From NCBI GenBank assembly GCA_963742755.1, contig CAVUMU010000011.1, forward strand, positions 76,568-140,567: DNA of 64,000 nucleotides. Direction: 5' to 3'. Shown piece by piece: positions 14,163 through 59,113 of this stretch (position 1 is its first letter; every line of letters begins with the position of its first letter). Origin of the DNA: an uncultured Gemmatimonadales bacterium (GTDB lineage: Bacteria; Gemmatimonadota; Gemmatimonadetes; Gemmatimonadales; GWC2-71-9). Below the pieces are notes generated by a model. The model was not told the origin of the DNA, did not search any database, and saw only the letters and a program-made list of their open reading frames with translations. Made by a program: the position numbers and the translations under genes.

Positions 14163-15146
14163 TTAGGAGAGGAGCACTTGGCTCTGCAGGGATAGCCAGA
14201 CCTGAGGGAAGGCCCACAGCGAGCAAAGTCCTACCAGCGAATAACTGTGGCCGACGGCCTGCTTCTCCATACAAAGGGAAACAAACTGTTGCCCTAGCGC
14301 GGAGGCATTCACCCGAGGGTGCCGAAGCCACAAGCCGAAGGGCAATGGCGGATCCAGAAACCTGCGGAAGACGACGGCGGGCTCTGAGTGGGCTTCCTCC
14401 ACCATCGAAGGGCTCATCAGCTTCCAACAACATCCCTGAGCCACCAGTGAGACGGCAGGAGCTCCTATGGCCTGTATGTTGGCCGGTTCGGCGGTAAGGC
14501 CGCGTGCGGCCAGCCCCGCCAGGACGCTGTCGTACGTCACCGGGTTGATATCGCGAGCCATTACCAAGAGGGGCAGGGACGCGAGATCGCGGAGCCAGAG
14601 CATTTCCTGAGAGGCCAGTGGGTGGGCGGCGGGCAGGAGCACGCCGACTATCGGATCATCGCGAAGCAGGTCGCTGACGATTCCGCCTGTTTCCTGCTCG
14701 GGCAGGTAGCCGAAGGCTACGTCGATCTCGCCCTCTTGCAGCGCCTGGGTTTGAGCTCCGGTCGAGAGGTGCTGCACAGTCACCGACATGTTGGGCAGCG
14801 AGTGGTGGAAGCGAGCCAGCGCCTCTCCAAGTAGCGCGAAGTGAGGGGGTGTAAGGTATGAGTAGGCAAGACGTAACAGGCCGGTCTCGCTTTGGGCACG
14901 CGCCCGCTGAACTGCCCGCAGCGTCTCGCCCAGCGCACCGCGGGCCCCCTCTACGAAAGCGCCCCCTGCCGGCGTCAGGACGGCGCCGCGCGCATTCCGC
15001 TCGAAGAGCTTGATGCCCAGCTCCCGTTCCAAGTCAGCGATTTGCCGGGAGACCGCCTGCTGGGCGAGCCCGAGTCTCTTGGCGGCTCGAGTAAAGCTGC
15101 CTTCTTCTGCTACCGCGATGCAGTACCGGAGATGCCTGAGTTCCAA
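14163..15146 (-). CDS. LysR-family transcriptional regulator
   Basis: LELRHLRYCIAVAEEGSFTRAAKRLGLAQQAVSRQIADLERELG..LFER...LTPAG; TTG start at 15146 chosen. Confidence 0.9.
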   Translation of the reverse strand: MELRHLRYCIAVAEEGSFTRAAKRLGLAQQAVSRQIADLERELGIKLFERNARGAVLTPAGGAFVEGARGALGETLRAVQRARAQSETGLLRLAYSYLTPPHFALLGEALARFHHSLPNMSVTVQHLSTGAQTQALQEGEIDVAFGYLPEQETGGIVSDLLRDDPIVGVLLPAAHPLASQEMLWLRDLASLPLLVMARDINPVTYDSVLAGLAARGLTAEPANIQAIGAPAVSLVAQGCCWKLMSPSMVEEAHSEPAVVFRRFLDPPLPFGLWLRHPRVNASALGQQFVSLCMEKQAVGHSYSLVGLCSLWAFPQVWLSLQSQVLLS

Positions 15147-15424
15147 GCCACACCTTTTGGCTGTGGGGAGTGGGATAAAGGTGTGTTGGATTTTTATGCA
15201 TGTCCAGTACCATTTTGTATCTCCGATACAAACTTGTATCCCTTTGGCGAGTGCAGCACCGCCGACCGTCGCCCCGAGTCTCGTATGGAGGTGCTTGACG
15301 CCGGACTGGCACCTCTCAAGTGATCCGCCAGTGACTGTCAGTAGTAGCAGCAACAGACATCCGACACCAGGACCGCAGCAGGGCGGTCATCCCGGACGGG
15401 CGGCAGGTCTTCAACTTGCTGTCG

Positions 15425-15441
15425 CATTTTGTGGCAAAATG
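15425..15441. promoter_or_regulatory. Palindromic candidate operator (T-N11-A type) between the divergent regulators
   Basis: CATTTTG-TGG-CAAAATG perfect inverted repeat. Confidence 0.35.
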
Positions 15442-15733
15442 GGAATTCGCGTGACGATGAGCGCCACCCGAGTTCCTACGGCTGATGACCCAAACTCGTC
15501 GAGCAGAAACGTTTGAGTGCGAGCGATAAGAGCTGAGGCGCAGTCTCGCTTTAACTGCATTTCTATGCAGTTGCGACACGTTTTAAGGCACAAGTCCTAT
15601 GCGTGGGATATGGTACCCATTGCTGTTGGCGCGCAACTCCGTCGTCCCGACCTCGGAGCCCGCCTAATCGAGTTCTTCAATCCGCCGGAAGCGCCGGTAG
15701 AGTAAGCGGGCTCCCGGAGGCACCACAGAGAAA

Positions 15734-16531
15734 TTGATGCTCACAGTCTTCGCCAAGGACGCGCGATACGCTCGGCGGATCGCAGCAGTTCTTGCACCGC
15801 GGGAGCCGGCCATTTGGGCGGAGTGTTGGGAGGAGCTCGAGCGCGAGCTCTTCGCGAGTGCCTGTACCATCGTCGTCCTCGGCTGGCTACGTGATGATCT
15901 CGGAGAGCGAAGACTCCGTACCCTGAAAGAGCGTTACCCCCGACGACCGCTGGTGCTGGTAACCAGCAAGGACGCCGATAACGCTCGCGCCCTTCGGTCG
16001 GCCGGCGTAGACGAGGTGGTATGGCTTTCGGAGATCGAGACGGGTCTCTGGTCTGCGATTCGTCGCGCAAGAGGAATCGGCTACCTGGAGCCCGTCATGC
16101 GCACAATAGAGCTCTCCCTCCCGGCGTATCCTCGACTCCAGCGGGCGCTGGGACATGCCTGCCGAGCCGAGCCCCCGGTCAGGTCGATTGGGCAGCTCGC
16201 CTCTGCCTCAGGATGCGATCGTCGAACGCTCTGGCGCCATTGGCACGATGCCGTCGCCGCCCGGCTCCCGCTCCGGCTGGAGGACGTGCTCGACTGGTTA
16301 CTCCTCCTTCACGCCGTGGGCAGGAAGGATCCGTCGTGTAGCTGGTCGAGGGTGGCCGCCGAGCTTCACATCCATCCCCATACCCTCGGGCGAATCTGCG
16401 TCCGGCTCGCTGGTCGGCCATTACGAATGCTGGCTGCCATCGATCAACTGCCTCTCGCGCTCCAGTTCGACGCTCAGATTCACACCGCATTCGGCAGTCA
16501 GCCGGCGTGGACCAGAGTCAGTTCGGCCTAA
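15734..16531 (+). CDS. Transcriptional regulator with pseudo-receiver N-domain and AraC-like tandem HTH
   Basis: Receiver-like PLVLVT...ALRSAGVDEVV; IGQLASASGCDRRTLWRHW and WSRVAAELHIHPHTLGRIC as two HTH-like segments. Confidence 0.6.
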   Translation: MMLTVFAKDARYARRIAAVLAPREPAIWAECWEELERELFASACTIVVLGWLRDDLGERRLRTLKERYPRRPLVLVTSKDADNARALRSAGVDEVVWLSEIETGLWSAIRRARGIGYLEPVMRTIELSLPAYPRLQRALGHACRAEPPVRSIGQLASASGCDRRTLWRHWHDAVAARLPLRLEDVLDWLLLLHAVGRKDPSCSWSRVAAELHIHPHTLGRICVRLAGRPLRMLAAIDQLPLALQFDAQIHTAFGSQPAWTRVSSA

Positions 16532-16574
16532 AGGCGAGGTCAGGCGGCGTAGCTCCCTCGCATCTGCCGGACCC

Positions 16575-16612
16575 GAGACGTTTTGGGTCCGGCAGAGACG
16601 TTTTGCGGTTGC
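16575..16612 (+). promoter_or_regulatory. Regulon motif copy 1
   Basis: GAGACGTTTTGGGtccggcaGAGACGTTTTGCGGTTGC; TTGCCC-17nt-GAACCT. Confidence 0.75.
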
Positions 16613-16742
16613 CCCGGGGCGCCCGCCGGTCGAACCTTGTATACGAATCACTAATCAATCGATTCTGGTCTCGTCTTGTGCGTTGCTTTGGAACCGCGGC
16701 GCGAGACTCTCTTGCATTTGCCGCGACCGTGAAAGAGGAGAC

Positions 16743-17888
16743 ATGACCTTGTTCTCATCGACGATGCTGCGCACGACATTGGCGACCCTGTTACTCCTGC
16801 CGCACGCCGGCGTGGGCGCTGCACTCGCCCAGAAACGCGACAAGGGTGAGAAGTCCGAGCCGCTGGTCGTCGCCAGCCAGGGCAACCGCCCGTTCGGTGG
16901 ACGGGTGGTGGTAGATGCCGCCGCAGGTACCCGGCTCAGCTGCGACCACGGCTACGTCAACTGGCAGGTTCCGCTCTCCCCGCGCCGGTACCCGCTCCTG
17001 ATGGTGCACGCCAGCAGCAAGAAGACATGGGAAACTACGTTCCACGGCACCGAAGGCTTCAGGGACATCTTCCTCCGTCGCGGCTTCTCGACCTGGATCA
17101 CCGACCTCCCGCGTACCGGCCAGGCCGGCCAGGGCTGCGGGGCAACGTCATACACGCCCGCGCTTTCCGACAAGAGCCGGTTCAACTCCTGGCGGCTCGG
17201 CCTCTGGCTGCTCGAGGAGTCGGCGCCGGACTGGTACCCGGGCGTGCAGTTCCCCACGACCAACGCCGCCGCCCTCGATGAGTTCTTCCGGGTTCAGACC
17301 CCCGAGTTCAATGCTCCGGAGAACGAAGAGGTCGAGACCGATGCCTTAGCCGTCCTGCTGCGTGAGATCGGCCCCTCGGTCGTGCTCACCCATTCGTCGA
17401 CCGGCATCCGCGGGTGGATTACCGCCCTCAAGAGCGACCGCATCGCCGGCATCGTGTCCTACGAGCCCGGGGCTGTCGTGTTCCCCGAAGGCGAGGTGCC
17501 GCCGCCGATCCCGAGAGCCGACGGGACGATGCAGATACCCGGCCGAGCAGTTCCGATGGCGGAATTCATGAAGCTGACCAGGTTCCCCATCCAGATCATC
17601 TGGGGCGACTACATCCCCAAGACCCTCGATCCGGTCAACGTGGGCCAGCGCCTGACTCTCGACAGCCGGCGGATCAACTTCATGCGCTCGCGGCTGTTCG
17701 CCGAGGCGGTCAATCGCCATGGCGGTGACGCGCAGAATCTGCTCCTGCCCGACATCGGCATCCACGGCAACACTCACTTCCCCATGCTGGATGTGAACAA
17801 CGTTCAGATCGCGGACCTCCTATCGCGGTTTCTCAGGGAGAAGGGGCTCGACAGGCGGAAGGATGACAAGCGGAAAGGAAAGGACTAG
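16743..17888 (+). CDS. Secreted alpha/beta hydrolase, esterase-713-like (paralogue 1)
   Basis: RBS AGAGGAG; signal peptide; DLPRTG, THSSTG nucleophile, YEPG acid, GNTHFPM His. Confidence 0.85.
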   Translation: MTLFSSTMLRTTLATLLLLPHAGVGAALAQKRDKGEKSEPLVVASQGNRPFGGRVVVDAAAGTRLSCDHGYVNWQVPLSPRRYPLLMVHASSKKTWETTFHGTEGFRDIFLRRGFSTWITDLPRTGQAGQGCGATSYTPALSDKSRFNSWRLGLWLLEESAPDWYPGVQFPTTNAAALDEFFRVQTPEFNAPENEEVETDALAVLLREIGPSVVLTHSSTGIRGWITALKSDRIAGIVSYEPGAVVFPEGEVPPPIPRADGTMQIPGRAVPMAEFMKLTRFPIQIIWGDYIPKTLDPVNVGQRLTLDSRRINFMRSRLFAEAVNRHGGDAQNLLLPDIGIHGNTHFPMLDVNNVQIADLLSRFLREKGLDRRKDDKRKGKD

Positions 17889-18049: not shown

Positions 18050-19303
18050 ATGAATCGGACGAGCAGCGCCATCCGGTGGGGCGCCTCCGCAGCCATCTCG
18101 GCCGCGATGCTGGTTGGCCTGGCCGGCACAGGGCAGGCGCAGGGGACCAACTGGCTGAAAAAGTACAAGGACCCCAACAAGGAGTCCATCACACTCAAGC
18201 GCCAGGGCTATTTCTACGTGAACGGCCGGTACTTCACCGACGAGGGCGACCCCAACACGGTGGGCGGGATGCGGATGACCGGCCAGATGTACGTGGAGGT
18301 CCAGGTTCCCAAGCACGTGAAGCACAAATACCCGGTCGTGATGATTCACGGCGGGTCGCAGACGGCGGCCAACTGGATGGGGACGCTCGATGGTGGCGAG
18401 GGCTGGCGCTCGTTCTTCACCGCCAACGGCTATGTGGTCTATCTGGTGGATCAGGTGGGCCGCGGCCGGTCGCCGGCCTACAACCCGCTTCCCGGCTATA
18501 GCCCGACCGACATCTCGACTTACGGGGAGCCGTTCAACCGCCCAGCCAACGTCCTCGGCCGGGAGCGCACCTGGAGCATCCCGGAGCAGTACATGGACTG
18601 GCCCCAGGCGGCCTTGCACACGCAGTGGCCCACCTTTGGCCAGCCGGGGGGGGGCAGGCCGGGCGACGAAGCCTTCGATCAGTTCTTCGCCTCCCAGATC
18701 CAGTCCCGGTTCGATCGGACGGGGAGAGAAATCCAGAAGGACGCCCAGGACGCCGGGGCGGCGTTGCTCGACAAGATCGGACCGGCGATCGTCATCACCC
18801 ACTCGCAGTCGGGGACGATGGGCTTCGCCATCGCCGATGCGCGCCCCAACCTGGTAAAGGTCCTGGTGACGATGGAAGGCGGCGGGAGGCCGACGGCGGC
18901 GACGGGGATTACCTGGCCGCCAGCCTCGATCCCCCTGACCTACTCGCCGGCGGTGACGGATCCCTTGACCCAGTTGAGCTACGTGGAGCAGGCGGCGGAT
19001 CCCACGGGCCTCCTCCTGACTTGCTGGCTGCAGAGGGAGCCGGCCAAGCAACTGCCTAATCTGGCGAGGATGCCACACCTGCTGCTCGTGAGCGAGGCGG
19101 GTTCATCGCAACGGACCAACCACTGCGTCTCGAAATACCTGACCCAGGCGGGTGTGCAGAACGACTATGTGAACCTCAAGGATGTGGGTATTCATGGCAA
19201 CGCGCACATGATCATGGTGGAAAAGAACGCGCTGCAGAGCGCGGCATACGTGGCCAGTTGGATCGAGAGCAAGCTCGAGAAGAAAGGGAAGAAGGACGAC
19301 TGA
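18050..19303 (+). CDS. Secreted alpha/beta hydrolase, esterase-713-like (paralogue 2)
   Basis: Signal peptide; GQMYV, HGG, DQVGRGRS, THSQSG, MEGG, GNAHMIM. Confidence 0.9.
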   Translation: MNRTSSAIRWGASAAISAAMLVGLAGTGQAQGTNWLKKYKDPNKESITLKRQGYFYVNGRYFTDEGDPNTVGGMRMTGQMYVEVQVPKHVKHKYPVVMIHGGSQTAANWMGTLDGGEGWRSFFTANGYVVYLVDQVGRGRSPAYNPLPGYSPTDISTYGEPFNRPANVLGRERTWSIPEQYMDWPQAALHTQWPTFGQPGGGRPGDEAFDQFFASQIQSRFDRTGREIQKDAQDAGAALLDKIGPAIVITHSQSGTMGFAIADARPNLVKVLVTMEGGGRPTAATGITWPPASIPLTYSPAVTDPLTQLSYVEQAADPTGLLLTCWLQREPAKQLPNLARMPHLLLVSEAGSSQRTNHCVSKYLTQAGVQNDYVNLKDVGIHGNAHMIMVEKNALQSAAYVASWIESKLEKKGKKDD

Positions 19304-19393
19304 GGCGGGACCGGTGACGGATGTCGATGGGAAGAGGGGCGCGGGCCTGGGCGGCGGCGCCCCTCTGCGTTGCGCACCCCAACGTTCTCCGAT

Positions 19394-19411
19394 GAGACGT
19401 TTTGCGGTTGC
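19394..19411 (+). promoter_or_regulatory. Regulon motif copy 2 (proximal half only)
   Basis: GAGACGTTTTGCGGTTGC; TTGCGC-16nt-GATTTT. Confidence 0.65.
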
Positions 19412-19627
19412 GCGATGAGGGGAACTACTGATTTTACCCTGAGGAACTCTGCCTTCCTTGGACCCACGCGGCGAAAGCCGCGGCCGCAAGCCCGGGGTAG
19501 TGCCTCCTCGGCGACGGACCCCGAACATGCCGTGCAGGGAATCCATGCTCACCGAGCTGCCGAAGAGGCGGCTCGGCGTTGCCGGTTGGACCACTGGCGG
19601 CACGTCAACTTCGTATTGGAGAGAGCT

Positions 19628-20794
19628 ATGCGAGCAGTAACCAGAATCTTGAGGGGAGCGAGCCTGGCCACGGCAGCGTTGTCCGTGCTGGCTTGGGGCA
19701 CGCGCGACCTGAGCGCGCAGCGACACCAGAGTCGGGGCAAGCAGCCGATCGTCCTGGCCGAGCAGGGAAGCTTATCCGTAGGCGGAAGGGTCGTCACCGG
19801 TTCGGGAACGTTCGACGCGACCATTCCGGGCGCGGGCTCTCGGAACGACGGCCAAGAGTTCCGGATCGATCAGCTGTACGCGCAGTATCAGGTGCCCGTT
19901 AATGCCCGGCGCCTTCCGATTGTCTTTATCCACGGCGGGGCAGGAACCGGCCGAGTATGGGAGACCACGCCTGATGGTCGGGAGGGATTCCAGACGATCT
20001 TCCTGCGTCGAGGCTTCCCGGTCTACATCGTGGACTTTCCCCGTCGGGGCCGGGCGAGCATCCCCTCATTTGTCGGGCCCCTGGGGAATTTGAACGGCAC
20101 CCAGATCATTCCGGCCACCACCTTTGCCGTGGGTAGTCATCAGGCTTGGATAAGCTGGCGCCTGGGCCCCGAGTACGGCAATCACTATGCGAGCTCGCAA
20201 TTCCCCAGGGAGCCAGCAGCCCTCGAGCAGTTCCTCCAGTCAACGGTCCCCCTTTTCTCGGACAACAACCAGGTCATTGTCGACGGAATCGTGGCGCTGC
20301 TCAATCGGATCGGCCCGGCGATACTCGTGACCCACTCGCAATCGGGTATCCACGGCTGGCTCGCGCGGGTGGCGAGTCCAAACGTCAAAGGGATCATCAC
20401 CTTTGAAGGCGGCTACGCCTTTCCTGAGGGAGAAGTGCCGGCGCCTCTACCGCGCTGCAACGGAGACCTGATTGCCCAGGGCACCTCGATGCCTGTAGCT
20501 GACTTCCAGAAGCTCACCGAAGTTCCCATCCTGGTCATCTATGGCGATCACCAGCCGAGCTGTCCCATGCCGAACCTGATACGGGATGGCCAGCAGCTCA
20601 GGCCCATTTTCGGGAGGAACTTCGTCAAGGCTCTGAACGACCGCGGGGGGAATGCTTCGTTTGTGTGGACGCCCGAGATTGGCATCCGCGGGAACACACA
20701 CTTCCTGTTCCTCGATAAAAACAATGTGCAGATCGCGGATATCCTGTCCCGCTTCCTCAATGAGAAGGGGCTGGATAGGCGGGGAAAGAAGTAG
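19628..20794 (+). CDS. Secreted alpha/beta hydrolase, esterase-713-like (paralogue 3)
   Basis: RBS GGAGAG; signal peptide; WETTPDGREGF, THSQSG, FEGG, GNTHFLF. Confidence 0.9.
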   Translation: MRAVTRILRGASLATAALSVLAWGTRDLSAQRHQSRGKQPIVLAEQGSLSVGGRVVTGSGTFDATIPGAGSRNDGQEFRIDQLYAQYQVPVNARRLPIVFIHGGAGTGRVWETTPDGREGFQTIFLRRGFPVYIVDFPRRGRASIPSFVGPLGNLNGTQIIPATTFAVGSHQAWISWRLGPEYGNHYASSQFPREPAALEQFLQSTVPLFSDNNQVIVDGIVALLNRIGPAILVTHSQSGIHGWLARVASPNVKGIITFEGGYAFPEGEVPAPLPRCNGDLIAQGTSMPVADFQKLTEVPILVIYGDHQPSCPMPNLIRDGQQLRPIFGRNFVKALNDRGGNASFVWTPEIGIRGNTHFLFLDKNNVQIADILSRFLNEKGLDRRGKK

Positions 20795-20846
20795 GGTACT
20801 CGGCCTTTTTGCCGGATTGCCTATCTCTTATTTGGAGGAACCGCCG

Positions 20847-24059: not shown

Positions 24060-24097
24060 GAGACGTTTTGGGACTGGGAGAGACGTTTTGCGGTTGC
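24060..24097 (+). promoter_or_regulatory. Regulon motif copy 3
   Basis: GAGACGTTTTGGGactgggaGAGACGTTTTGCGGTTGC; TTGCAG-17nt-CATTGT. Confidence 0.75.
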
Positions 24098-24824: not shown

Positions 24825-24882
24825 CGCGGCTGAAATTATCGCATGACGCTTGGATCCACACCCCAACACGAAGGAGAGCTCG

Positions 24883-50675: not shown

Positions 50676-52504
50676 GGGCAAGCGCGTTGTGCCTCACCTG
50701 GCTTCTTACCGCCGGCGCAGTTGTTCCGTTGGCGGCGCAGGAGCCGCTGACGGTCCGGATCAATTACGTGGATGCCGACCTGAGGGATGTCATTCGTTCC
50801 CTGGCGGCGGTTCTCGGCCTCAACGTTGTTCTTACTGAAGTGCCGGCCAGGCGGGTCACCTTTCAGACGCCGGAGCCGGTGCCGGTAGCCGAGGTCGGTG
50901 CGGTGCTCGAAGCCGTTCTCGAAGCCCAGGAGCTGGTCCTGGTGGAGAAAGGTCCGGTAGCTCAGGTCCTGCCCGATGCCAAGCGCCCGTCCACCGGGCC
51001 GATACGAGTAGGCAAGGAGCTGCAGAAGCCGCCGCCGCTCGGACTCATTACCCAGATCGTCCCACTCGACTATATCGGCGCCGAGGAAGCACTCGCGTTT
51101 CTCACCCAGATCGCCGGTAAGTCGGTGAGAATCGAGGTGGTCCCGCGCTCGAATGCCATCCTGATCACTGACCGCGGGGTCAACATCGCGCGCTATCTCG
51201 AGCTGCTCCAGAAGCTCGACGTAAAGACCGGCGGGGAGTCTGGTCTGCGGACATTCGTCTATCCGCTGAAGCACGCAAGCGCCGAGGAGCTGTCCGCCAC
51301 TTTGAGCGAGGTCTTCGGCGGGGCCACCGGCGCACCCAGCGAACGGACCCGGGTGCGGTCGCTGGAGGATCGGAGCTTGTCGTCCGAGCTGGACGCGTTC
51401 CGGAAACGGGAGAACGAGGCGCTGGAACAGCGGCGTCAGACCCCGATCCCCACTCTGGCTCCGCCTCCGGCGGCGCCCACGCCCGGCACCGAGACTGCTG
51501 GAGCACAGTCGGGGCTGGTGGGACAGACCACGATCGTGCCCGACCAGGCGACCAATTCGCTCGTCATTCGCACTGCGCCGCCCAATTTTCCCGTGCTCCA
51601 GGAGACGATCGACAAGCTCGATATCAGGCCGGCCCAGGTGCTACTCGAGGTCCTCATCGCCGAGGTCAATCTGGGCAATGCCACCCAGTACGGGATCAAC
51701 TGGCGGCTGTTCACCCAGGAGCTGGTCACCGGCGATTCTACCCGGGGGATTACCGGCCTGTATGGCGGACCGTCCTTCGGGGATTCGGCGCTCAGCAGTC
51801 TGGGCGGTCTTGGTATTCGGGTCGTCAGCATGGGCACGAACGTAGACGTTCGCGCCATCATCCAGGCGCTGGCCAGCAAAACCAAGGTTAAGGTGCTCTC
51901 CACTCCTCGCATTCTGGCGCTGAATAATGAGGAGGCACGGATTCTCGTCGGCAGCGAGGTCCCCTTCACCCAATCGACTCGAACCGGCCTCGACGTCGTG
52001 GTGGATCAGACGGTCCAGTTCCGCAACGTAGGCACCCAGCTGACGATCGTCCCCACCGTAAACAAGGACCGGTACGTCACCTTCCGTATACTTCAGGAAG
52101 TCAGCGCCCTGACCGCCCAGACGATCCAGGCCGCGCTCAATGCCCCGGTGATCTCGACCCGGGAGGTGGAGACCAGTGCGATTGTTCGGAGTGGGAGCAC
52201 GATCATCATCGGTGGCTTGATCGGAGAGTCGGAGCAGACGATTCAGAGCGGCGTGCCCATTCTCCAGGATCTACCGATCATCGGTGCACTCTTCCGGAAC
52301 TCAGACAGGAGCAAATCACGGAGCGAGCTCGCCATCTTCGTAACCCCGCACGTCGTGTTCGACGACGCGCAGGCTGACTCCCTGCTCCAGCAACAGCGGG
52401 GGCAATTGCAGGGGATGCAGCCCCTTCTCGACAGCATGTTCGCTCTACCCAACATCGACGGCAGGGGAAGCGTGACCGGCGAGAAGGCCATGACCGGACG
52501 ATGA
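50672..52504 (+). CDS. gspD: T2SS secretin GspD
   Basis: INYVDADLRDVI, YPLKHASA, QVLLEVLIAEV, STPRIL.LNNEEA, GVPILQDLP.IG.LF. Confidence 0.92.
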   Translation: MRASALCLTWLLTAGAVVPLAAQEPLTVRINYVDADLRDVIRSLAAVLGLNVVLTEVPARRVTFQTPEPVPVAEVGAVLEAVLEAQELVLVEKGPVAQVLPDAKRPSTGPIRVGKELQKPPPLGLITQIVPLDYIGAEEALAFLTQIAGKSVRIEVVPRSNAILITDRGVNIARYLELLQKLDVKTGGESGLRTFVYPLKHASAEELSATLSEVFGGATGAPSERTRVRSLEDRSLSSELDAFRKRENEALEQRRQTPIPTLAPPPAAPTPGTETAGAQSGLVGQTTIVPDQATNSLVIRTAPPNFPVLQETIDKLDIRPAQVLLEVLIAEVNLGNATQYGINWRLFTQELVTGDSTRGITGLYGGPSFGDSALSSLGGLGIRVVSMGTNVDVRAIIQALASKTKVKVLSTPRILALNNEEARILVGSEVPFTQSTRTGLDVVVDQTVQFRNVGTQLTIVPTVNKDRYVTFRILQEVSALTAQTIQAALNAPVISTREVETSAIVRSGSTIIIGGLIGESEQTIQSGVPILQDLPIIGALFRNSDRSKSRSELAIFVTPHVVFDDAQADSLLQQQRGQLQGMQPLLDSMFALPNIDGRGSVTGEKAMTGR

Positions 52505-54102
52505 CACGCCGCCAACCAGCTCAAACGCAACACCTGGAGCTACCGACACCTCCGCCGGCGCTGCCCAATCCGTCCGCTCGGGCCATCTCCGCCGCGGATC
52601 TTCGGACCGCGGTCGCGAGCCCCCTGGCTCAGCGACTCTCGCTCAAGTACTGGGAGCAACATTGTCTGCTGCCTTTGACCATCACCGAGTCGCAGCTGAC
52701 CGTGGCCGGCGGAGAAGCGGTGGACCCAACCGTGCTGGACGAGTTGGCCTGGCTCTATGATCGGAGAGTGAGGCTGGTCGAGGCGCCCGCGGCCGAGATC
52801 CAGTCGGCCATCCTGTCCGCACAGTCGGCTACCGGCCCGGAGATCCAGGCAACCGACCTGAAGGGGAACGACCTGGTGGTGCTGGCGCCGGAGGACGAGG
52901 CCCTCGATGACCTGAGGGCACTGGCGAACCAGGCGCCGGTAATCAAGCTGGTCAACGTGATGATTCTGGAAGCGTTGCGGGCCCGGGCCAGCGACATCCA
53001 CCTCGAGGCCACCAACGATGGCCTGCGGGTGCGATACCGTATTGACGGCGTGCTCCAGGAGATCTCCCATCCTCCACGCCAATTCCAGGCTGCGGTTATC
53101 AGCCGGATCAAGATCATGGCGGGGTTGAACATCGCCGAGCGGCGGCTCTCGCAGGACGGGAGGATCCGGCTCAAGCTATCTGATCGCGAGCTCGACCTGC
53201 GGGTCTCGATCACCCCGGCGCTGCATGGCGAGGGTGTAGTGCTCCGCATCCTCGACCGCGGAGCCGGGGTGCGCGACCTCGACGAGCTCGGCTTGTCCGA
53301 CAGCGTGCGGCAAACCTTCGACCAGCTGATCCGCCAGCCTCACGGCGTCGTGCTGGTCACCGGCCCAACCGGCTCCGGAAAGACCACGACGCTCTATGGC
53401 GGTGTCAGCCGGTTGAATCAGCCGGGAGTGAAGATCGTCACCGTCGAGGACCCGGTGGAGTACCAGATGGACGGCGTCACCCAGATCCCGGTAAGTCCCA
53501 AGATAGGACTCACCTTCGCCGCCATCCTCCGATCAATCCTGCGCCACGACCCCGACATCATCATGGTAGGCGAGATGCGCGACCGGGAGACAGCGGAGAT
53601 CGCCATTCAGGCCGCGCTGACGGGCCACATGGTCTTCTCCACACTGCATACCAACGACGCGCCAAGTGGGATCACGCGCATGGTGGACATGGGCGTGGAA
53701 CCCTACCTGGTGTCTGCTACCGTGTCAGGCATCCTCGCTCAGCGGCTGGTCCGGCTGGTGTGTGACACCTGCGCGGAGCCCGAATATCCGCCGCCAGAGG
53801 CACTGGAGCAGTTCGATGCCGCCCTGCCCGACATTCCCGCGCCTCGGTTCCGGCGCGGCCGGGGCTGCGAGGCCTGTGGGGGCAGCGGGTACCGGGGCCG
53901 CACCGGGATCTACGAGCTGATGGTGCTTAACGAGGAGATCCGGTCTCGCATCGTGGCCGGCGCGCCACTGGCCGAGATCCGCTCCCTGGCGCAGGCGGCC
54001 GGCATGGTGCCACTGCGCACGGCGGGGTGGGCTAAGGCCTGCGCGGGCGTCACGTCGCTGGCCGAGGTGCTGAGGGTCACCCGCGAGGAGTCGGCCGGGT
54101 GA
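52501..54102 (+). CDS. gspE: T2SS ATPase GspE
   Basis: ASDIHLE, GPTGSGKTTTLY, EDPVEY, LRHDPDIIMVGEMRD, AALTGH, CxxC pairs. Confidence 0.95.
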   Translation: MTRRQPAQTQHLELPTPPPALPNPSARAISAADLRTAVASPLAQRLSLKYWEQHCLLPLTITESQLTVAGGEAVDPTVLDELAWLYDRRVRLVEAPAAEIQSAILSAQSATGPEIQATDLKGNDLVVLAPEDEALDDLRALANQAPVIKLVNVMILEALRARASDIHLEATNDGLRVRYRIDGVLQEISHPPRQFQAAVISRIKIMAGLNIAERRLSQDGRIRLKLSDRELDLRVSITPALHGEGVVLRILDRGAGVRDLDELGLSDSVRQTFDQLIRQPHGVVLVTGPTGSGKTTTLYGGVSRLNQPGVKIVTVEDPVEYQMDGVTQIPVSPKIGLTFAAILRSILRHDPDIIMVGEMRDRETAEIAIQAALTGHMVFSTLHTNDAPSGITRMVDMGVEPYLVSATVSGILAQRLVRLVCDTCAEPEYPPPEALEQFDAALPDIPAPRFRRGRGCEACGGSGYRGRTGIYELMVLNEEIRSRIVAGAPLAEIRSLAQAAGMVPLRTAGWAKACAGVTSLAEVLRVTREESAG

Positions 54103-55298
54103 CCGCTCGATTCCGCTACCGGGCTGCGAGCAGGGCCGGGCGAGTGGTCGAAGGAGTCCTGCAGGCCCCTTCCCGGCAAACGGCAATCGCCGAGCTGGAG
54201 AGGCAGCAACTCTATCCGGTGGCGATCGACGAGGTGCTGGTGCGGGACTCTCTCCTGGCACCGCGACGCCTGGGCCGCCGGGCCGCCGTGACACTCTGGT
54301 GCCGAAGTGCCGCCACTCTTCTGGGCGCGGGGCTGCCGCTCGACCGGGTCCTGGGCTTCACCGCGGCGCATGTGGGGCACCCCGACCTGAGTGAGGCGCT
54401 CAAGCAGGTCCGGCGGTCGGTGCAGGGCGGTGCCAGCCTGGCCGACGCGCTCATGGAGCATCCCCGCTACTTCGATTCGCTCTTTGTGGCGACGGTTTCG
54501 GCGGGGGAATCGAGCGGCGCGCTGGAGACGGTCTTCGAGCGACTGGCCGAGCACCTGGAAGAGAGCGCCGAGCTCCGGTCCCAGGTCCGCTCGGCGCTGC
54601 TGTACCCCGGGCTAATGGCGGTCGTCGGTAGCCTCGGCGTGATCATCCTCCTGGGGTTCGTGATCCCGCGCTTCGCCGGCATCCTGGCCGACGTGGGCGG
54701 CAGCCTGCCCTTCTCGACTCGCCTCCTGATGACAGCCAGTGCGGTGGTGAGTCAGGGTTGGTGGGCCTGGCTGCTGCTGGCCACCGCCGCGGCGTACGCC
54801 ATCCCCACCGCGTTGGCTCGTCCGGCGCTACGGCGACGCTGGCACGGGATGCGGCTCGAACTGCCGTGGGTGGGAGATCTGGAGCGCAAGTATACGACTG
54901 CGCGATTTGCCCGAACCTTGGGGCTGGTGCTGCGGAGCGGCATCTCGGTCCTGCCCGCCTTGAAAATCGCCCGCACCTCCGCCGGCAACCTGGTGATTCA
55001 GGATGGACTCGAGCGGGCCTCCGCGGCAGTTTCCGAGGGCAGCGCACTGGCGCCGGCGCTGGCCTCCACCCTGCCGCCCCTGGCGGTGCAGCTGATCGCC
55101 GTGGGCGAGGAGAGCGGCCATCTGGAAGACCTTTGCCTTCGGGTGGCAGATTCCTACGACACTGAAGTACGGCGCTCGGTGCGGACCGCGGTCGCGCTCA
55201 TCGAGCCGGCGATGATCCTGCTCTTCGGCTCTCTGGTAGGGTTCGTCGCGCTGGCAATGTTGCAGGCAATCTATGGCATTAATCTCAACGCCTTCTAG
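54099..55298 (+). CDS. gspF: T2SS inner-membrane platform GspF
   Basis: AGESSGAL, ALLYP, VIPRF, VGEESGHL, LIEP. Confidence 0.92.
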   Translation: MTARFRYRAASRAGRVVEGVLQAPSRQTAIAELERQQLYPVAIDEVLVRDSLLAPRRLGRRAAVTLWCRSAATLLGAGLPLDRVLGFTAAHVGHPDLSEALKQVRRSVQGGASLADALMEHPRYFDSLFVATVSAGESSGALETVFERLAEHLEESAELRSQVRSALLYPGLMAVVGSLGVIILLGFVIPRFAGILADVGGSLPFSTRLLMTASAVVSQGWWAWLLLATAAAYAIPTALARPALRRRWHGMRLELPWVGDLERKYTTARFARTLGLVLRSGISVLPALKIARTSAGNLVIQDGLERASAAVSEGSALAPALASTLPPLAVQLIAVGEESGHLEDLCLRVADSYDTEVRRSVRTAVALIEPAMILLFGSLVGFVALAMLQAIYGINLNAF

Positions 55299-55305
55299 GT
55301 GCACT

Positions 55306-55746
55306 ATGTCTCGGCTCTCGACCACTGACAGGGATGGGTTCACGCTCATCGAGATACTCGTCGTGATCATCGTGATCGGGCTGCTGGCCGGTTTGGTGGG
55401 CCCCCGAATATTAGGCCGGGTTTCCGAGGCCAAGACGGCCACTGCCAGGACCCAGATCGAGCTCATCGGTCTCGCCCTGGACAACTATCGGCTCGACAAC
55501 GGAGCCTACCCCACCACCGAGCAGGGCCTCCCGGCGCTTCAGGAGAAGCCGGGCCGCGAACCGACCTCGCTCAACTGGCGAGGGCCCTACCTGAAGAAGG
55601 CCGTTCCCCTCGATCCCTGGGGCCGCGCCTACTCGTATTCCAGCCCCGGTGAGCATACCCCGGGCGGCTACGATCTCTGGACTCTGGGCCGGGATGGACA
55701 GCCAGGAGGCGAGAACGACAACGCAGACGTGACCAGCTGGAAATGA
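55306..55746 (+). CDS. gspG: T2SS major pseudopilin GspG
   Basis: GFTLIEILVV, YRLDNGAYPTTEQGL, WRGPYL, DPWG, LGRDGQPGGE. Confidence 0.95.
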   Translation: MSRLSTTDRDGFTLIEILVVIIVIGLLAGLVGPRILGRVSEAKTATARTQIELIGLALDNYRLDNGAYPTTEQGLPALQEKPGREPTSLNWRGPYLKKAVPLDPWGRAYSYSSPGEHTPGGYDLWTLGRDGQPGGENDNADVTSWK

Positions 55747-55771: not shown

Positions 55772-56257
55772 TCAAAGTGTCTGGTTGAGGCCAAGAACCA
55801 GTCGGAACGGGCTGGTGCGGTTTACAAAAGTCCACCGAAACTCCAGGAATACCTTCCTCAGCGTCGCTGCCTCCGACACCAGGCCGAAGAACAGGTTGTA
55901 TCCCGTCTTCACCCCCGACAGGGCTCGCACCCGAGTGAACGCCGCCCCGGCTCCGCCGTAGATGCTGCGGCGGGGGCCGAAGCTCAGGGTGCCGTCGGCA
56001 TTGAGCTGCCAGCGGAAGGGAGTACGGTCACCCAGGAAATAGTCGCCGCTCGGTCGGAAGGCGATGCGGTTTTGAAGGGGAACCACGGCCTGGCCGCCGA
56101 CGCTCCAGGCATGGTTCTCGAAATCGCGTCCACCCCGCACCCCGACGTTGATGCCCTGCCATACGCCGCCCTTCCGGTGCAACTGGGCGGCGGCCGGAGT
56201 CGAGAGCAGGCTGCCCGCGCACAACACTGCCGCCAGCCGCAGGTGAACGGTGGTCAA
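55772..56257 (-). CDS. Small outer-membrane beta-barrel protein
   Basis: Signal peptide; alternating amphipathic strands; YGGAG, FLEFRW; TTG start overlaps the gspH stop. Confidence 0.6.
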   Translation of the reverse strand: MTTVHLRLAAVLCAGSLLSTPAAAQLHRKGGVWQGINVGVRGGRDFENHAWSVGGQAVVPLQNRIAFRPSGDYFLGDRTPFRWQLNADGTLSFGPRRSIYGGAGAAFTRVRALSGVKTGYNLFFGLVSEAATLRKVFLEFRWTFVNRTSPFRLVLGLNQTL

Positions 56258-56679
56258 CGAGCGGTTGGGAGGCGTGAAGGCGGGGGCTGGGCGACCTCAC
56301 ACGTCAGCGGATCCAGGCGCATGTCGCCCGCTATTACACTGCTCGGCGCGTCCAGGGCACAGCTCCCGGTAGGGGAGAGCAGAACGGTCAACGGATGCTC
56401 GTAAAAGGGATCCACCCTCCCTCTCAGTAAGACTTCCGGCGCCGCCGAGGCTGAGCCTTCGATCCTCCACTCGCCGGATGCACCGATCCGAAGGTGTACG
56501 GTTTCCCCCCGCCTGATCGCAGCCTCGCGCGCGGTGGAAACCAGGTGTCGGAATCCCGACTCAGCCGGGGCAGGTCGCAGCAGGGCAGGGGCCGCCAGGG
56601 CCGCGGTCAAGCCGATCAGCACCAGGACCACGACCATCTCGATCAAGGTGACGCCCCGCAGTGCGGCCGGGTTACTCAT
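56254..56679 (-). CDS. gspH: GspH/FimT-like pseudopilin
   Basis: GVTLIEMVVVLVLIG..AAP; AREAAIRRG. Confidence 0.7.
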   Translation of the reverse strand: MSNPAALRGVTLIEMVVVLVLIGLTAALAAPALLRPAPAESGFRHLVSTAREAAIRRGETVHLRIGASGEWRIEGSASAAPEVLLRGRVDPFYEHPLTVLLSPTGSCALDAPSSVIAGDMRLDPLTCEVAQPPPSRLPTAR

Positions 56680-56733
56680 GATCCCGAAGGTGCCCGGAGG
56701 GTGGTCCACTGTCAAACCGGCGTCCATCCGGAT

Positions 56734-56892
56734 TCAAAAGATCGCGTAGATGAAAGGAGCCAGCACTGATCCCTGGGCAAAGATGATGAGGGCCCCGACG
56801 AGGGCCATTATGATGATGATGGGCAGCAGCCACCACTTCTTGCGCGCTCGCATGAAAGCCCAGATCTCTCGAGCCATGCCCGCTTGCGCCAT
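56734..56892 (-). CDS. DUF5989/SxtK-like small membrane peptide (52 aa, not in ORF track)
   Basis: Manual translation MAQAGMAREIWAFMRARKKWWLLPIIIIMALVGALIIFAQGSVLAPFIYAIF; RBS AAGGAGG. Confidence 0.9.
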   Translation of the reverse strand: MAQAGMAREIWAFMRARKKWWLLPIIIIMALVGALIIFAQGSVLAPFIYAIF

Positions 56893-56903
56893 TACATCCC
56901 TCC

Positions 56904-57311
56904 TTAGAACTGTCGCTCCAGATCAGCCCGCTGCCGGCCACGATTCTCCCTCGTGACCCAGAAGCTGTTCCCCCTTGCCCGCGCGCGCAGCGCGTTATTT
57001 CCGGTGAGACGCCGGAGAATCCCTATGGGGGTGATGACCAGAAAGTATACCGCGGCGAGGAGAACCGGCGTGGTCACTTTCGAGAGAACCATCGCCAGCT
57101 TCATCCATGCTCGAAAAACCGGCGAGAGCACACGGGGCCGGACGAGCCCAAGCGCCACCAGGGCTGCCCCGGCCGCGCCCACGACCCCGGCCGCCATTGG
57201 TCGCCCCCGCCACCAGAGCAGGGCCCCCAGCAGGCAGAACGCCGCTCCGACCATGAGCCCAAAACGGCGTGCGTCGGCAACGCTCAGTCGAGTTGGAATT
57301 CCTTCTGCCAT
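56904..57311 (-). CDS. SxtJ-family membrane protein
   Basis: RRFG, P..LSPVFRAWMKLA..L..VTTP..L..VYF.VITPIG, SFW..R, ERQF C-terminus. Confidence 0.85.
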   Translation of the reverse strand: MAEGIPTRLSVADARRFGLMVGAAFCLLGALLWWRGRPMAAGVVGAAGAALVALGLVRPRVLSPVFRAWMKLAMVLSKVTTPVLLAAVYFLVITPIGILRRLTGNNALRARARGNSFWVTRENRGRQRADLERQF

Positions 57312-59113
57312 TGGGCCACCTCCTTCCACTCTCGCTGGGCAGTCTTTTCTACCAGGAAGGGGCCCATCACCAGGTAATCCATGTCGGTCCGCATGAAGCA
57401 GCGAAGCGCGTCGGCTGGCGTGCACACGATCGGCTCGCCCCTGACGTTAAAGGACGTATTTACCAGGACCGGGCAGCCGGTGAGGCCCTCGAACTCATGA
57501 ATCAGATCGTAGTAGTCGGGGCTGACATCCCGGTCTACAGTCTGGATCCGGGCCGAATAATCGATGTGGGTGACGGCCGGTATGTCGGACCGCGCCACAT
57601 TCAGCTGATCGATCCCCCAGAGGCCATCGTGCTGCGATTGAGACGGCGTGCGGCGTTCCTGTTTCACCGGCGCCACCAGTAGCATGTAGGGCGAGTCGCA
57701 GTCGAGGTCGAAGTACTCCTGCACCCGTTCCCGCAGGACGCTGGGCGCGAAGGGGCGAAACCCCTCCCGAAACTTGATCTTGAGGTTCATCTGGGCCTGC
57801 ATTCCAGGGCTGCGAGGATCTCCCAGAATGCTGCGGGCCCCTAGGGCGCGGGGGCCGAACTCCATGCGCCCGTTGAACCAGCCGACTACTTTGTCGTCGC
57901 TCAGAAACGCCGCCACCCGGCTCAGCAGGTCGTGTCGCGCCAGGCGCTGGTATACTGCACCTGCAGACCCCAGGCACTCCTCGATCTGGTCATCCGAAAA
58001 GGCCGGACCCAGGTACCCCCCCTTCATCGCATCCTTTCCGGGGGTCACCGGTCGGGGTTTCTGGCAGTATCGGTGCCAGATCAGCTGGGCAACGCCGAGT
58101 GCACCACCCGCGTCGCCGGAGGCGGGCTGAATCCACAACCGCTTGAACGGCCCTTCACGCAGAAGCCGGCCGTTGCCGACGCAGTTGAGGGCCACTCCTC
58201 CGGCGAGGCAGAGATTCTCGGCCCCGGTCAGCCGGTGCGCCGTCCGGCCCATTCGCAACATCACCTCTTCGCAGACATCCTGGACGGAGCGGGCCAGGTC
58301 CATCTCTCTCTGAGTGAGTCTCGCCTCGGGAACCCGAGGTGGTCCACCGAAGAGCTCATCGAAGGCGGGGCTCGTCATGGTGAGCCCGGCCAGATAGTTG
58401 AAATATCTCTGATTGAGGGTGAACGATCCATCGGGACGCAGGTCGATCAGCTCGCGGCGGATCAGGTCTACATACGCGGGCCTGCCATAGGGTGCGAGGC
58501 CCATGACCTTATACTCGCCCGAATTGACCTTGAACCCGGTGTAATAGGTAAATGCGGAGTAGAGCAGTCCCAGGGAATCAGGCCAGCGCAGCTCGGAGAG
58601 AATCTCGATGTCGCTGCCCTGGCCCATTCCAATCGTGGCAGTGGACCACTCACCGACGCCATCGATGGTGAGAATGGCGGCGGACTCGAAGGGAGACGGA
58701 TAGAACGCGCTGGCAGCGTGAGACTCGTGGTGCTCGGCAAAGAGCAGGGTCCCCTGGTACCCGCCCAGTCCTTCGCGAAGCTCCCGCGCGGTGTAAAGCT
58801 TCTCTTTCATCCAGAGAGGCCCGGCTTTCAGGAATGATCGGAAGCCGCGCGGAGCAACCGAGAGGTAAGTCTCAAGGATCCGCTCGAACTTGAGCAGTGG
58901 CTTGTCATAGAAGCCGGCATAGCTCAGGTCGGCCAGCGTAATACCGGCCTGCTCGAGACAGTACTCCACCGCCCGCGCCGGGAAGCCTGCGTCTCCCTTC
59001 TTCCGGGTAAAGCGCTCTTCCTGCGCGGCGGACATGATCTCGCCATCGCGCAGCAGGCAAGCTGCGCTGTCGTGATAGAAGGCGGAGATCCCCAGGATCC
59101 AAGTGGGCGGCAT
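57284..59113 (-). CDS. O-carbamoyltransferase (NodU/CmcH/TobZ/SxtI family)
   Basis: ILGISAFYHDSAA, QEERFTRKK, EHHESHAAS, DGVGE, GEYKVMGLAPYG, AGGVALNC, EFGPRALG, RPFAP, NTSFN. Confidence 0.95.
   Translation of the reverse strand: MPPTWILGISAFYHDSAACLLRDGEIMSAAQEERFTRKKGDAGFPARAVEYCLEQAGITLADLSYAGFYDKPLLKFERILETYLSVAPRGFRSFLKAGPLWMKEKLYTARELREGLGGYQGTLLFAEHHESHAASAFYPSPFESAAILTIDGVGEWSTATIGMGQGSDIEILSELRWPDSLGLLYSAFTYYTGFKVNSGEYKVMGLAPYGRPAYVDLIRRELIDLRPDGSFTLNQRYFNYLAGLTMTSPAFDELFGGPPRVPEARLTQREMDLARSVQDVCEEVMLRMGRTAHRLTGAENLCLAGGVALNCVGNGRLLREGPFKRLWIQPASGDAGGALGVAQLIWHRYCQKPRPVTPGKDAMKGGYLGPAFSDDQIEECLGSAGAVYQRLARHDLLSRVAAFLSDDKVVGWFNGRMEFGPRALGARSILGDPRSPGMQAQMNLKIKFREGFRPFAPSVLRERVQEYFDLDCDSPYMLLVAPVKQERRTPSQSQHDGLWGIDQLNVARSDIPAVTHIDYSARIQTVDRDVSPDYYDLIHEFEGLTGCPVLVNTSFNVRGEPIVCTPADALRCFMRTDMDYLVMGPFLVEKTAQREWKEVAQWQKEFQLD

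Follow-up and report, generated by a model that had tools for sequence, protein, structure and literature searches.

Does a stretch of about 45 kb that holds genes for exported hydrolases, a type II secretion system (T2SS) and several putative tailoring enzymes constitute one integrated system, or do separate sets of genes lie side by side in it? The question is raised by contig CAVUMU010000011.1 of an uncultured Gemmatimonadales bacterium, of which a stretch of 64,000 nucleotides (contig positions 76,568 to 140,567; hereafter the window, in which all of the positions given below are counted) was analysed. The initial annotation, which was made from the sequence alone, had described positions 14163-59113 as an integrated and self-contained locus. 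We hold the chance to be somewhat better than even that the locus comprises two things and not one integrated island, i.e., a chromosomal regulon of secreted hydrolases with a cassette of SagB and 2-oxoglutarate (2OG) oxygenase genes, and an interleaved module that resembles sxtI-sxtJ-sxtK-sxtL. The regulon is probably old in its lineage, and its host is probably a Gemmatimonadales bacterium; the nearest outside matches point to that order, with GspD and GspE being 71-78% identical to loci in Gemmatimonadales metagenome-assembled genomes (MAGs).

The gene calls were based on a Pfam scan of 62 open reading frame (ORF) proteins, an NCBIfam scan of 43, an all-against-all BLASTP comparison and listings of the small ORFs, and signal peptides were assessed by eye from the N-termini. 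For the comparison with other genomes, an alignment of 24 homologues of the TPR-SagB fusion protein of the cassette led to 30 loci (denoted by L numbers), with flanks of up to 10 kb and full 10-kb flanks in 15 of them; their neighbouring genes were determined by tblastn of the window proteins and by Pfam on 100 ORFs of six loci. Twelve exported proteins had been proposed in the window, and this count holds: nine hydrolases of the esterase-713/SulE type, two amidohydrolases with twin-arginine translocation (Tat) signals and one CHRD-domain protein. The gsp cluster, three SGNH-TPR proteins with an additional SGNH-only protein, the TPR-SagB fusion, the carbamoyltransferase/SxtJ/DUF5989 genes, and the LEA_2 and DnaE2-like polymerase genes of the flanks were likewise recovered, and two genes that the earlier list had lacked, unk190 (38073-38642) and a second DUF5989 copy (39280-39438), are present as well.

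The largest group in the secreted set is formed by nine related alpha/beta hydrolases (abh1-abh9), which, with pairwise identities of 25-51% (BLASTP), do form the library of paralogues that had been suggested. A PDB sequence search was run on two of them, abh9 and abh7, and the other seven are tied in by BLASTP. The matches of abh9 included 4q34 (E=4.5e-27) and 1qlw, which is esterase 713 (E=6.2e-27); abh7 and abh9 both match 1qlw (best E 6e-27 and 5e-27), 4q34 and the SulE entries, with an overall range of E=4.5e-27 to 1.6e-10. According to the alignment, the catalytic Ser and His are kept in all nine proteins; eight of them have Glu as the acid, and abh8 has Asp. In every one of them, the nucleophile lies outside a GxSxG motif, in the form xS(Q/S)xx, together with GNxH/GxTH. 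A passage of PMC10356948 characterises the esterase 713/SulE family by a Ser-Glu-His triad, the lack of GxSxG and an N-terminal signal peptide. The likeness to esterase 713 of Alcaligenes (1qlw) and SulE of Hansschlegelia (7y0l and others) consists of E values of 6e-27 to 5e-18, a Ser-Glu-His triad without GxSxG, and the signal peptide; unlike in those cases, nine diverged paralogues lie here at one locus, about 100 aa being inserted in each of three, and a T2SS and the SagB cassette lie alongside.

The genes are abh1 (16155-17888, +; signal-peptide Met at about 16743), abh2 (18050-19303, +; Abhydrolase_1/6), abh3 (19370-20794, +; signal-peptide Met at about 19628), abh4 (20652-22037, +; signal-peptide Met at about 20847), abh5 (24850-26307, +), abh6 (29860-31035, +; signal-peptide Met at about 29983), abh7 (33046-34437, -; esterase-713-like), abh8 (34502-35872, -; signal-peptide Met at about 35815) and abh9 (44919-46088, -); abh5, abh7 and abh8 form a long subfamily. 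A tree that comprised the nine proteins and 12 homologues from related loci contained three starred clades, i.e., abh1 and abh3 with an acidobacterial gene (abh1 is 62% identical to that of L015, an acidobacterial TPR-SagB neighbour), abh2, abh4 and abh9 with a betaproteobacterial gene, and abh5, abh7 and abh8 with alphaproteobacterial genes (abh5 groups with those of L026 and L030). Only a loose grouping was obtained for abh6, with copies from Gemmatimonadales and from Methyloceanibacter (L003), of which it is the nearest paralogue in the window. Because each of the three clades holds a TPR-SagB neighbour from another phylum, they predate this lineage.

The hydrolase genes are connected by a shared sequence element. 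An 18-nt motif, GAGACGTTTTGCGGTTGC, matched the window six times at no more than 3 mismatches, as against 0.00 matches expected from 100 shuffles, and at five of the six sites a second copy resembling GAGACRTTYTGGG lies 19-20 nt upstream. All six sites are intergenic and face the downstream gene: abh1 (16575-16612, +; half-site GAGACGTTTTGGG, with GAGACGTTTTGCGGTTGC 20 nt on), abh3 (19394-19411, +; a single copy), the CHRD gene that precedes abh5 (24060-24097, +), abh6 with amidohydrolase 1 behind it (29625-29662, +), abh8 with abh7 behind it (35901-35937, -) and amidohydrolase 2, which heads the string that runs to TPR-SagB (35951-35988, +). Those genes of the hydrolase locus that have no site of their own trail a motif-bearing gene in the same direction at gaps of 52-161 nt or less, and the gaps within the amidohydrolase 2-to-TPR-SagB string are -53 to 158 nt. 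A weight-matrix scan found nothing comparable before SGNH-TPR1, SGNH-TPR2, SGNH3 or the carbamoyltransferase string. In a Gemmatimonadales relative (L014), related sites with 2-3 mismatches precede esterase genes, the amidohydrolase and gspJ. A scan of 35800-47000 for sigma-70 promoters and terminators stayed at the level of shuffled sequence. We read the 18-nt element as a putative activator site that defines a regulon, and the common motif as a predicted signature of the co-regulation of the hydrolase operons. Since each unit carries the same direct-repeat operator upstream, a single activator is probable, and it would switch on all six units together.

Two regulators had been proposed. One of them is a LysR-family protein (14163-15353, -; longest ORF, with the helix-turn-helix (HTH) from residue 72; HTH_1 and LysR_substrate), homologues of which (32-43% identity) adjoin TPR-SagB in L008, L013, L014 and L029. 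The other, a conserved protein of 265 aa (15734-16531, +), is a possible regulator at most, since its HTH matches were sub-threshold (E 0.0045-0.08); it has a 57% identical orthologue beside the amidohydrolase in L014. An AraC-like identity was considered for it and found no support: BLASTP with an AraC neighbour gave E=1.4, and nothing in PDB matched with a value lower than E=0.29. The exported CHRD-domain protein (24252-24824, +; PF07452, E=1.1e-20) has a homologue in L003.

The two Tat amidohydrolases, amidohydrolase 1 (31129-32967, +; Amidohydro_1/3, PRK08204 320 bits; RR motif and Cys-Cys tail) and amidohydrolase 2 (36124-37914, +; Cys-Cys tail at residues 563-596), are 63.5% identical and have SRRxF twin-arginine N-termini. 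Their PDB matches were 7ww2, 4v1x and 4f0r (E about 1e-12 to 1e-13), and the HxH motif was invariant in the alignment. In the Amidohydro_1/3 domains, these matches and the HxH motif, they resemble the TRZ/ATZ-type amidohydrolases (AtzA, TrzN, 8-oxoguanine deaminase and methylthioadenosine/S-adenosylhomocysteine (MTA/SAH) deaminase), from which they differ in the Tat signal, in internal insertions and in a conserved Cys-Cys tail of 34 residues that was found on this subfamily only. Among the ORFs of the window and the 30 loci, the tail consensus PYRPxFLxxCCxxGQNxxAPxYxLRP was found in amidohydrolases of this subfamily only. The 17 neighbour amidohydrolases all end in NPYRPxFLxxCCxxGQNxxAPxY(x)xRP, except for that of L020, which diverges after the Cys pair, and those in which the N-terminus is present have RR motifs. 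A database search with the tail only returned nine proteins, all of them amidohydrolases. In the amidohydrolase alignment, conservation of at least 90% was found at 17 of the 34 tail positions, compared to 177 of the 487 positions of the catalytic part. AlphaFold placed residues 555-596 at a predicted local distance difference test (pLDDT) score below 50, i.e., as disordered, in a model that was poor overall (62.2 for the whole, from a 15-row alignment).

Among 72,556 plasmids, one full-length TPR-SagB was found, on pBB2 of Cupriavidus necator N-1. An amidohydrolase of 60.5% identity lies 3 kb from it; among the plasmid matches listed, it is the only one that continues through the tail region, the other listed homologues having no more than 38% identity and ending within residues 548-576. 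C. necator, which carries the pair of TPR-SagB and tail-bearing amidohydrolase, can be cultured, and in this locus (L031, 62163-94625) the pair is situated amid genes of aromatic-ring catabolism, including homogentisate dioxygenase.

The cassette that follows amidohydrolase 2 contains the TPR-SagB fusion (42186-44900, +), in which about 650 aa of TPR and a linker are followed by a SagB-type flavin mononucleotide (FMN) dehydrogenase domain (TIGR03605 100.9 bits, cut-off 78.4; Nitroreductase 69.1 bits). It had 293 database matches, and among the 120 listed most had 50-59% identity across no less than 90% of the query; closer relatives such as P0001 (97%) and P0002 (75%) also occur. A profile search of genome contigs yielded no relative above 61-63% identity. 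The motifs RxRRSxR (residue 712) and KYG (residue 834) are invariant in the 24 aligned sequences; the literature ascribes a catalytic role to Lys-Tyr. The TIGR03605 score above the cut-off and these motifs are shared with the SagB/McbC-type azoline dehydrogenases of thiazole/oxazole peptides. Unlike in those pathways, the protein is a fusion with about 650 aa of TPR, has neither a cyclodehydratase partner nor a short precursor, and its constant neighbour is an amidohydrolase of 600 aa. No recurrent family of small ORFs that could represent a short Cys/Ser/Thr-rich precursor was found near TPR-SagB, and the only Cys-Cys element there is the amidohydrolase tail.

The other members of the cassette are unk190, 2OG-a and 2OG-b. 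The first is a cytoplasmic protein of 189 aa (38073-38642, +) from a rare family, with 32 matches among 1.84 billion representative proteins and no Pfam match at E<=1. Its structure was modelled at a pLDDT of 93.2, and a Foldseek search found no PDB or BFVD match at E<=0.001. Copies of 52-71% identity occur in L003, L016, L018, L020 and L030, in two of which (L016 and L030) unk190 and 2OG-a form one in-frame fusion; additionally, the first 171 residues of a 430-aa database protein align to unk190. The presence of two 2OG oxygenases had been proposed. One of them, 2OG-b (41206-42144, +; start probably at about 41488), matched PF13759 with 76.7 bits and TIGR02466 with 68.3 bits (cut-off 62.5), and its PDB matches were two uncharacterised structures only, 2rg4 and 3bvc. 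The assignment is weak for 2OG-a (38590-39246, +), a putative 2OG/Fe(II) oxygenase that scored 24.5 bits with PF13640, short of the cut-off (27), and that has an H-I-D motif at residue 132 and no PDB sequence match; copies of 62-73% identity are found in five loci. Distant relatives of unk190 (P0130-P0149, 24-32% identity) resemble phage hypothetical proteins, and so, as no more than a lead, do its neighbours in the ESM Atlas, at 0.94; a tblastn search against 50,697 phage records gave no match. PF13759 oxygenases have reportedly been found in cyanophages, and a pair of unk190 and a 2OG enzyme may exist in phages. In Methylonatrum kenyense (L020, 19-4180 and 15985-17094), the cassette is flanked by genes for a multicopper oxidase, a copper-type P-ATPase and an outer-membrane efflux protein.

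The 30 loci span Acidobacteriota/Vicinamibacteria, Gemmatimonadales, Alpha-, Beta- and Gammaproteobacteria and one member of Tepidisphaeraceae. A tail-bearing amidohydrolase was found near TPR-SagB in 17 of them (16 and one that is cut at the locus edge), esterase-713-like genes in nine, 2OG-b in nine, unk190 and 2OG-a in five each, LysR in four and CHRD in one (L003). T2SS genes lie within 10 kb in eight (L013, L014, L024, L029, L016, L026, L030 and L018), which belong to four Gemmatimonadales, three Alphaproteobacteria and one gammaproteobacterium. When only the 15 loci with full flanks were considered, the amidohydrolase was present in 12, the T2SS in five and the esterases in five. AraC regulators were observed in the proteobacterial loci. 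The order in L014 is three esterases, the 265-aa protein, the amidohydrolase, TPR-SagB, LysR, an esterase, and gspJ to gspF; because this Gemmatimonadales MAG has such a compact form, the layout looks old in the lineage.

Based on these observations, we propose that the nine Sec-exported Ser-Glu-His esterases, the two Tat-exported metal amidohydrolases and the CHRD protein would be produced from six transcription units, that the adjoining gsp T2SS would move the hydrolases across the outer membrane, and that the secreted enzymes would cleave ester and amide bonds in a substrate outside the cell. The cytoplasmic cassette of unk190, 2OG-a, 2OG-b and TPR-SagB would be co-transcribed with amidohydrolase 2; its TPR arm would dock the amidohydrolase tail, and the SagB domain and the 2OG enzymes would modify the tail before Tat export. 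Docking is proposed because the tail is flexible and strongly conserved, and because TPR-SagB travels with the tail-bearing amidohydrolase across phyla. Both the export of the hydrolases through the T2SS and the modification of proteins are what we infer from the sequences. Tentatively, the cassette could be a maturation machine for the whole enzyme, one that recognises the tail and oxidises or hydroxylates its residues (Ser-Cys-Cys, Pro, Asn, Tyr) before export, which would give rise to a protein-derived cofactor, a cross-link or a lid that the activity or the secretion would require.

Several observations weigh against this account. In the C. necator amidohydrolase, Ser-Thr-Ser replaces Ser-Cys-Cys, and there is no RR signal at the annotated start. 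The Cys pair and the export are hence not universal, and the pairing with TPR-SagB is independent of export; a nucleophilic side-chain pair is retained in this tail, not as cysteines. No YcaO or other cyclodehydratase was found in the window ORFs or among the 100 ORFs of six loci. The window has no strong copy of the motif ahead of the gsp operon; the only site there, at 46214 (-), is one of chance level and lies before abh9. Moreover, 22 of the 30 loci have no T2SS, three loci with full flanks (L004, L010 and L011) contain no partner genes, and the acidobacterial loci have TonB-type receptors, pyrroloquinoline quinone (PQQ) dehydrogenases and NHL proteins instead of a T2SS. Finally, the sxt-like module is interwoven with the hydrolase regulon at four places; the gaps that surround the second DUF5989 gene and SGNH-TPR4 measure 33, 5 and 22 nt, and those in the carbamoyltransferase-SxtJ-DUF5989-gspH string 6 and 11 nt. 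Such tight spacing argues for some link between the two.

The cassette could also have a catabolic role, which is possible but, in our assessment, doubtful. In that case, TPR-SagB, unk190 and the 2OG enzymes would act on the small-molecule products of the hydrolases, and the tail would be a structural, oligomerisation or export element. The setting of the pair on pBB2, amid genes for the fumarylacetoacetate hydrolase family, VOC, cupin, quinol monooxygenases, MFS, a porin and GntR, fits with such a role, as do the TonB-type receptors that adjoin the pair in Acidobacteriota. A TPR region of about 650 aa would rather suggest a protein partner, however, and the SagB family model is one of peptide dehydrogenases. 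The regulators on the side of the cassette are of the LysR, AraC or GntR types, which are typical of catabolic operons, but the co-occurrence follows only the tail-bearing form of the amidohydrolase, and the tail equals the catalytic core in its degree of conservation even though the tail was modelled as disordered.

We consider it unlikely that all of the modules belong to one system, in which the carbamoyltransferase trio and the SGNH-TPR proteins would serve the T2SS by tailoring either the secreted proteins or the cell surface. The interleaved module would consist of a carbamoyltransferase, SxtJ, two DUF5989 proteins and four SGNH/GDSL proteins, which are widespread elsewhere in contexts of glycan or lipid tailoring. 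The carbamoyltransferase gene (57284-59200, -; start probably at 59113-59122; Carbam_trans_N 303.8 bits and Carbam_trans_C 247.2 bits) is followed by those for an SxtJ-family membrane protein (56904-57425, -; start probably at 57311; PF19588 41.9 bits, cut-off 24.4) and a DUF5989, or SxtK-like, protein (DUF5989a, 56734-56892, -; PF19451 E=1.9e-24, 85.9 bits). The second DUF5989 gene (DUF5989b, 39280-39438, +; PF19451 E=4.2e-21, 75.2 bits), the product of which is 50% identical to that of the other copy, lies directly before SGNH-TPR4 (39336-41465, +; start probably at 39444), which sits between 2OG-a and 2OG-b. The remaining genes encode SGNH-TPR1 (22098-23963, -), in which an N-terminal membrane anchor and an SGNH domain are followed by TPR repeats (Lipase_GDSL_2 and TPR; GES / NE / ExxH blocks), SGNH-TPR2 (26375-28357, -), which is 66% identical to it, and the SGNH-only protein SGNH3 (28533-29600, +; Lipase_GDSL_2 E=3e-9). 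As given in a part of PMC2684587, sxtI (carbamoyltransferase), sxtJ, sxtK (hypothetical) and sxtL (GDSL-lipase) of the saxitoxin cluster have consecutive accession numbers. The joint presence of a carbamoyltransferase, SxtJ, DUF5989 (SxtK) and GDSL/SGNH proteins is common to the window and the cyanobacterial saxitoxin clusters, from which the window differs in having no other sxt gene, four SGNH proteins, three of them with TPR, a doubled DUF5989 and a location on a Gemmatimonadales chromosome.

The position of these genes favours a single system, since SGNH/DUF5989 genes lie within the hydrolase locus at 22-24, 26-29.6 and 39.3-41.5 kb, DUF5989b and SGNH-TPR4 are inside the amidohydrolase 2-to-TPR-SagB string at gaps of 5-33 nt, and the genes for the carbamoyltransferase, SxtJ, DUF5989, GspH and a small outer-membrane-like protein form a single co-directional string. 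In L016, L018 and L030, however, 2OG-a directly adjoins 2OG-b, which indicates that DUF5989b and SGNH-TPR4 are an insertion in the window. Neither SGNH genes nor the carbamoyltransferase/SxtJ/DUF5989 trio were found in any of the 30 loci. In the window, the distance from TPR-SagB to the trio is 12.4 kb, which 10-kb flanks would not span even in a syntenic relative; due to this distance, among the genes of the module only the absence of SGNH-TPR4-like genes is informative. The carbamoyltransferase is 74% identical to a copy on plasmid 2 of Gemmatirosa kalamazoonensis, where it and DUF5989 are situated beside a GDSL protein, an AT3-SGNH acyltransferase and sulfate-activation genes, with no gsp, esterase or TPR-SagB gene within 20 kb; on pSymB of S. 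meliloti, the trio lies 3 kb from an acyltransferase gene, again without gsp. Moreover, the 18-nt motif is missing before SGNH-TPR1, SGNH-TPR2, SGNH3 and the trio. A database lead concerns P0008 (TPR-SagB), P0156 (tail-bearing amidohydrolase) and P0164 (a 76% identical SGNH-TPR4), each of which lists a longest contig of 40,121 nt; they may lie on a common contig, which would speak for one system. The SGNH-TPR family is very large, with 2675 matches at E<=1e-10 among the 8000 candidates scored for the SGNH-TPR4 query; a search of the plasmids with SGNH-TPR1 gave no match. One homologue of 874 aa (P0203) has DsbA/thioredoxin-type domains (PF01323, PF13462), which is a hint at a periplasmic role of the family. 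Of the single self-contained system that had been envisaged, the part that stands is that the hydrolases, the T2SS and the SagB/2OG genes recur together in other lineages, and that the hydrolase operons share a motif; the trio, which in Gemmatirosa and S. meliloti occurs without gsp or esterase genes, and the SGNH genes are probably not part of the regulon.

In the preferred reading, in which the hydrolase regulon and the sxt-like module are separate, the T2SS belongs with the regulon. Its operon (46457-55746, +) contains J?, I?, K, L, M, C, D, E, F and G with start/stop overlaps of 4 nt. GspD scored 380.4 bits with TIGR02517 (cut-off 351.35) and has the Secretin, Secretin_N and N0 domains, GspG scored 176 bits with TIGR01710 (cut-off 88.85) and GspM 77.2 bits with NF040576 (cut-off 60). 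GspE (T2SSE 440 bits) and GspF (T2SSF 184 bits) belong to their Pfam families, while their NCBIfam equivalog scores of 602 (cut-off 630) and 363 (cut-off 424), and likewise that of GspK, were below the cut-offs. GspL has a PilN domain only, GspC is short (32.9 bits, cut-off 150), and the minor pseudopilins H, I, J and K have N_methyl motifs and sub-threshold matches only. The GspH-like minor pseudopilin (56254-56727, -; N_methyl motif and weak TIGR01708) overlaps by 4 nt with the gene of an exported protein of 161 aa (55772-56257, -) that has no family and is, by eye, small and outer-membrane-like; it could be a T2SS accessory, e.g., a pilotin. GspD, E, F, G and M and the minor pseudopilins in one operon with likely cargo genes adjoining are features of Gsp/Xps clusters, unlike which there is no gene for the prepilin peptidase GspO among the 62 window ORFs, although one may lie elsewhere in the genome, and gspH is on the opposite strand, in the string of the carbamoyltransferase trio. 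A search of the 72,556 plasmids with GspD gave no match. That the T2SS lies beside the hydrolase set by chance, without any functional link, is very unlikely in our view: the 22 loci without a T2SS gene in reach and the lack of a strong motif before gspJ in the window would agree with it, but a T2SS lies within 10 kb in eight of the 30 loci, from at least three lineages, when, in a genome of several Mb, a cluster that measures about 10 kb would be expected to adjoin by chance in less than about 1% of loci (a rough estimate, not computed), and L014 has a copy of the motif immediately ahead of gspJ.

A cluster for a thiazole/oxazole-type ribosomally synthesised and post-translationally modified peptide, or another natural product built on SagB, was already disfavoured and is hardly credible, because, in spite of the SagB-family domain above the curated cut-off and of the Ser-Cys-Cys or Ser-Thr-Ser of the tail, which are residues of the kinds that are heterocyclised in such peptides, the window ORFs and the 100 ORFs of six loci contain no YcaO/cyclodehydratase, short precursor, export ATP-binding cassette (ABC) transporter or protease, and the recurrent neighbours are hydrolases and secretion genes.

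With regard to the proposed integration of the locus, no trace of such an event was found. The window has no tRNA genes and no Rfam families, and the Pfam scan of the 62 window ORFs revealed no integrase or transposase families. The G+C content is about 64% and remains within 0.61-0.68 all along; no break in tetranucleotide composition was observed, the correlation being 0.98 between locus and flanks and 0.97 between the flanks, and the GC skew of the locus is no different from that of the flanks. Among the direct repeats, the best 20 of 40 families are all internal (paralogous genes or the motif), and none pairs the ends of the locus.

The left flank contains the LEA_2 gene (13552-14034, +; PF03168 E=2.7e-10), and the right flank a DnaE-type polymerase of DnaE2 length (59215-62421, -; PRK05673 607 bits and PRK05672 565 bits, both under the cut-off). 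Just left of the originally delimited interval lies the gene of a lipoprotein of the GSDH family, which is PQQ-type sugar dehydrogenase-like (12353-13942, -; PF07995 E=2.4e-42; by eye, the N-terminus after an internal Met is lipoprotein-like). In the Methyloceanibacter MAG (L003, 6618-8234), a GSDH gene is situated between esterase and CHRD genes, beside TPR-SagB; because of this, the left border may be at about 12.3 kb, and the GSDH lipoprotein may belong to the locus. Farther out, the protein encoded at 3-2717 (+) joins an Omp85-type barrel to PD40 beta-propeller repeats. An alpha/beta hydrolase that is unrelated to the esterase-713 set (62566-63343, -) is split over two overlapping ORFs, an Abhydrolase_1 N-terminal half (62906-63343, E=1e-31) and a C-terminal piece (62566-63027), and could be a frameshift or a pseudogene. 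The neighbouring Tag (3-methyladenine glycosylase) ORF (63340-63921, -) covers the profile positions 10-115 of 177 and is maybe truncated or frameshifted.

A search of a literature library found no paper on DUF5989 and none that joined SagB to amidohydrolase plus type II secretion, to TPR plus the nitroreductase superfamily, or to amidohydrolase plus 2-oxoglutarate. As judged by title and abstract, the papers that name both SagB and amidohydrolase deal with peptidoglycan hydrolases, with S. aureus or with unrelated genomics. Gemmatimonadota and Vicinamibacteria are abundant in soil, and their extracellular enzymology is little known; for these bacteria, the locus offers a testable regulon of one operator, twelve exported proteins and a T2SS. 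As proven biocatalysts and herbicide-detoxifying enzymes are found in the esterase-713/SulE family, nine natural variants under one switch represent a ready panel of enzymes. The four-gene cassette is conserved from Acidobacteriota to Gammaproteobacteria, and its function has not been described. If it does mature the amidohydrolase, SagB chemistry would reach from peptides to folded enzymes, in a role of the SagB family that is independent of a cyclodehydratase, and the unk190 family, the confident model of which matches no solved or viral fold, would gain a function.

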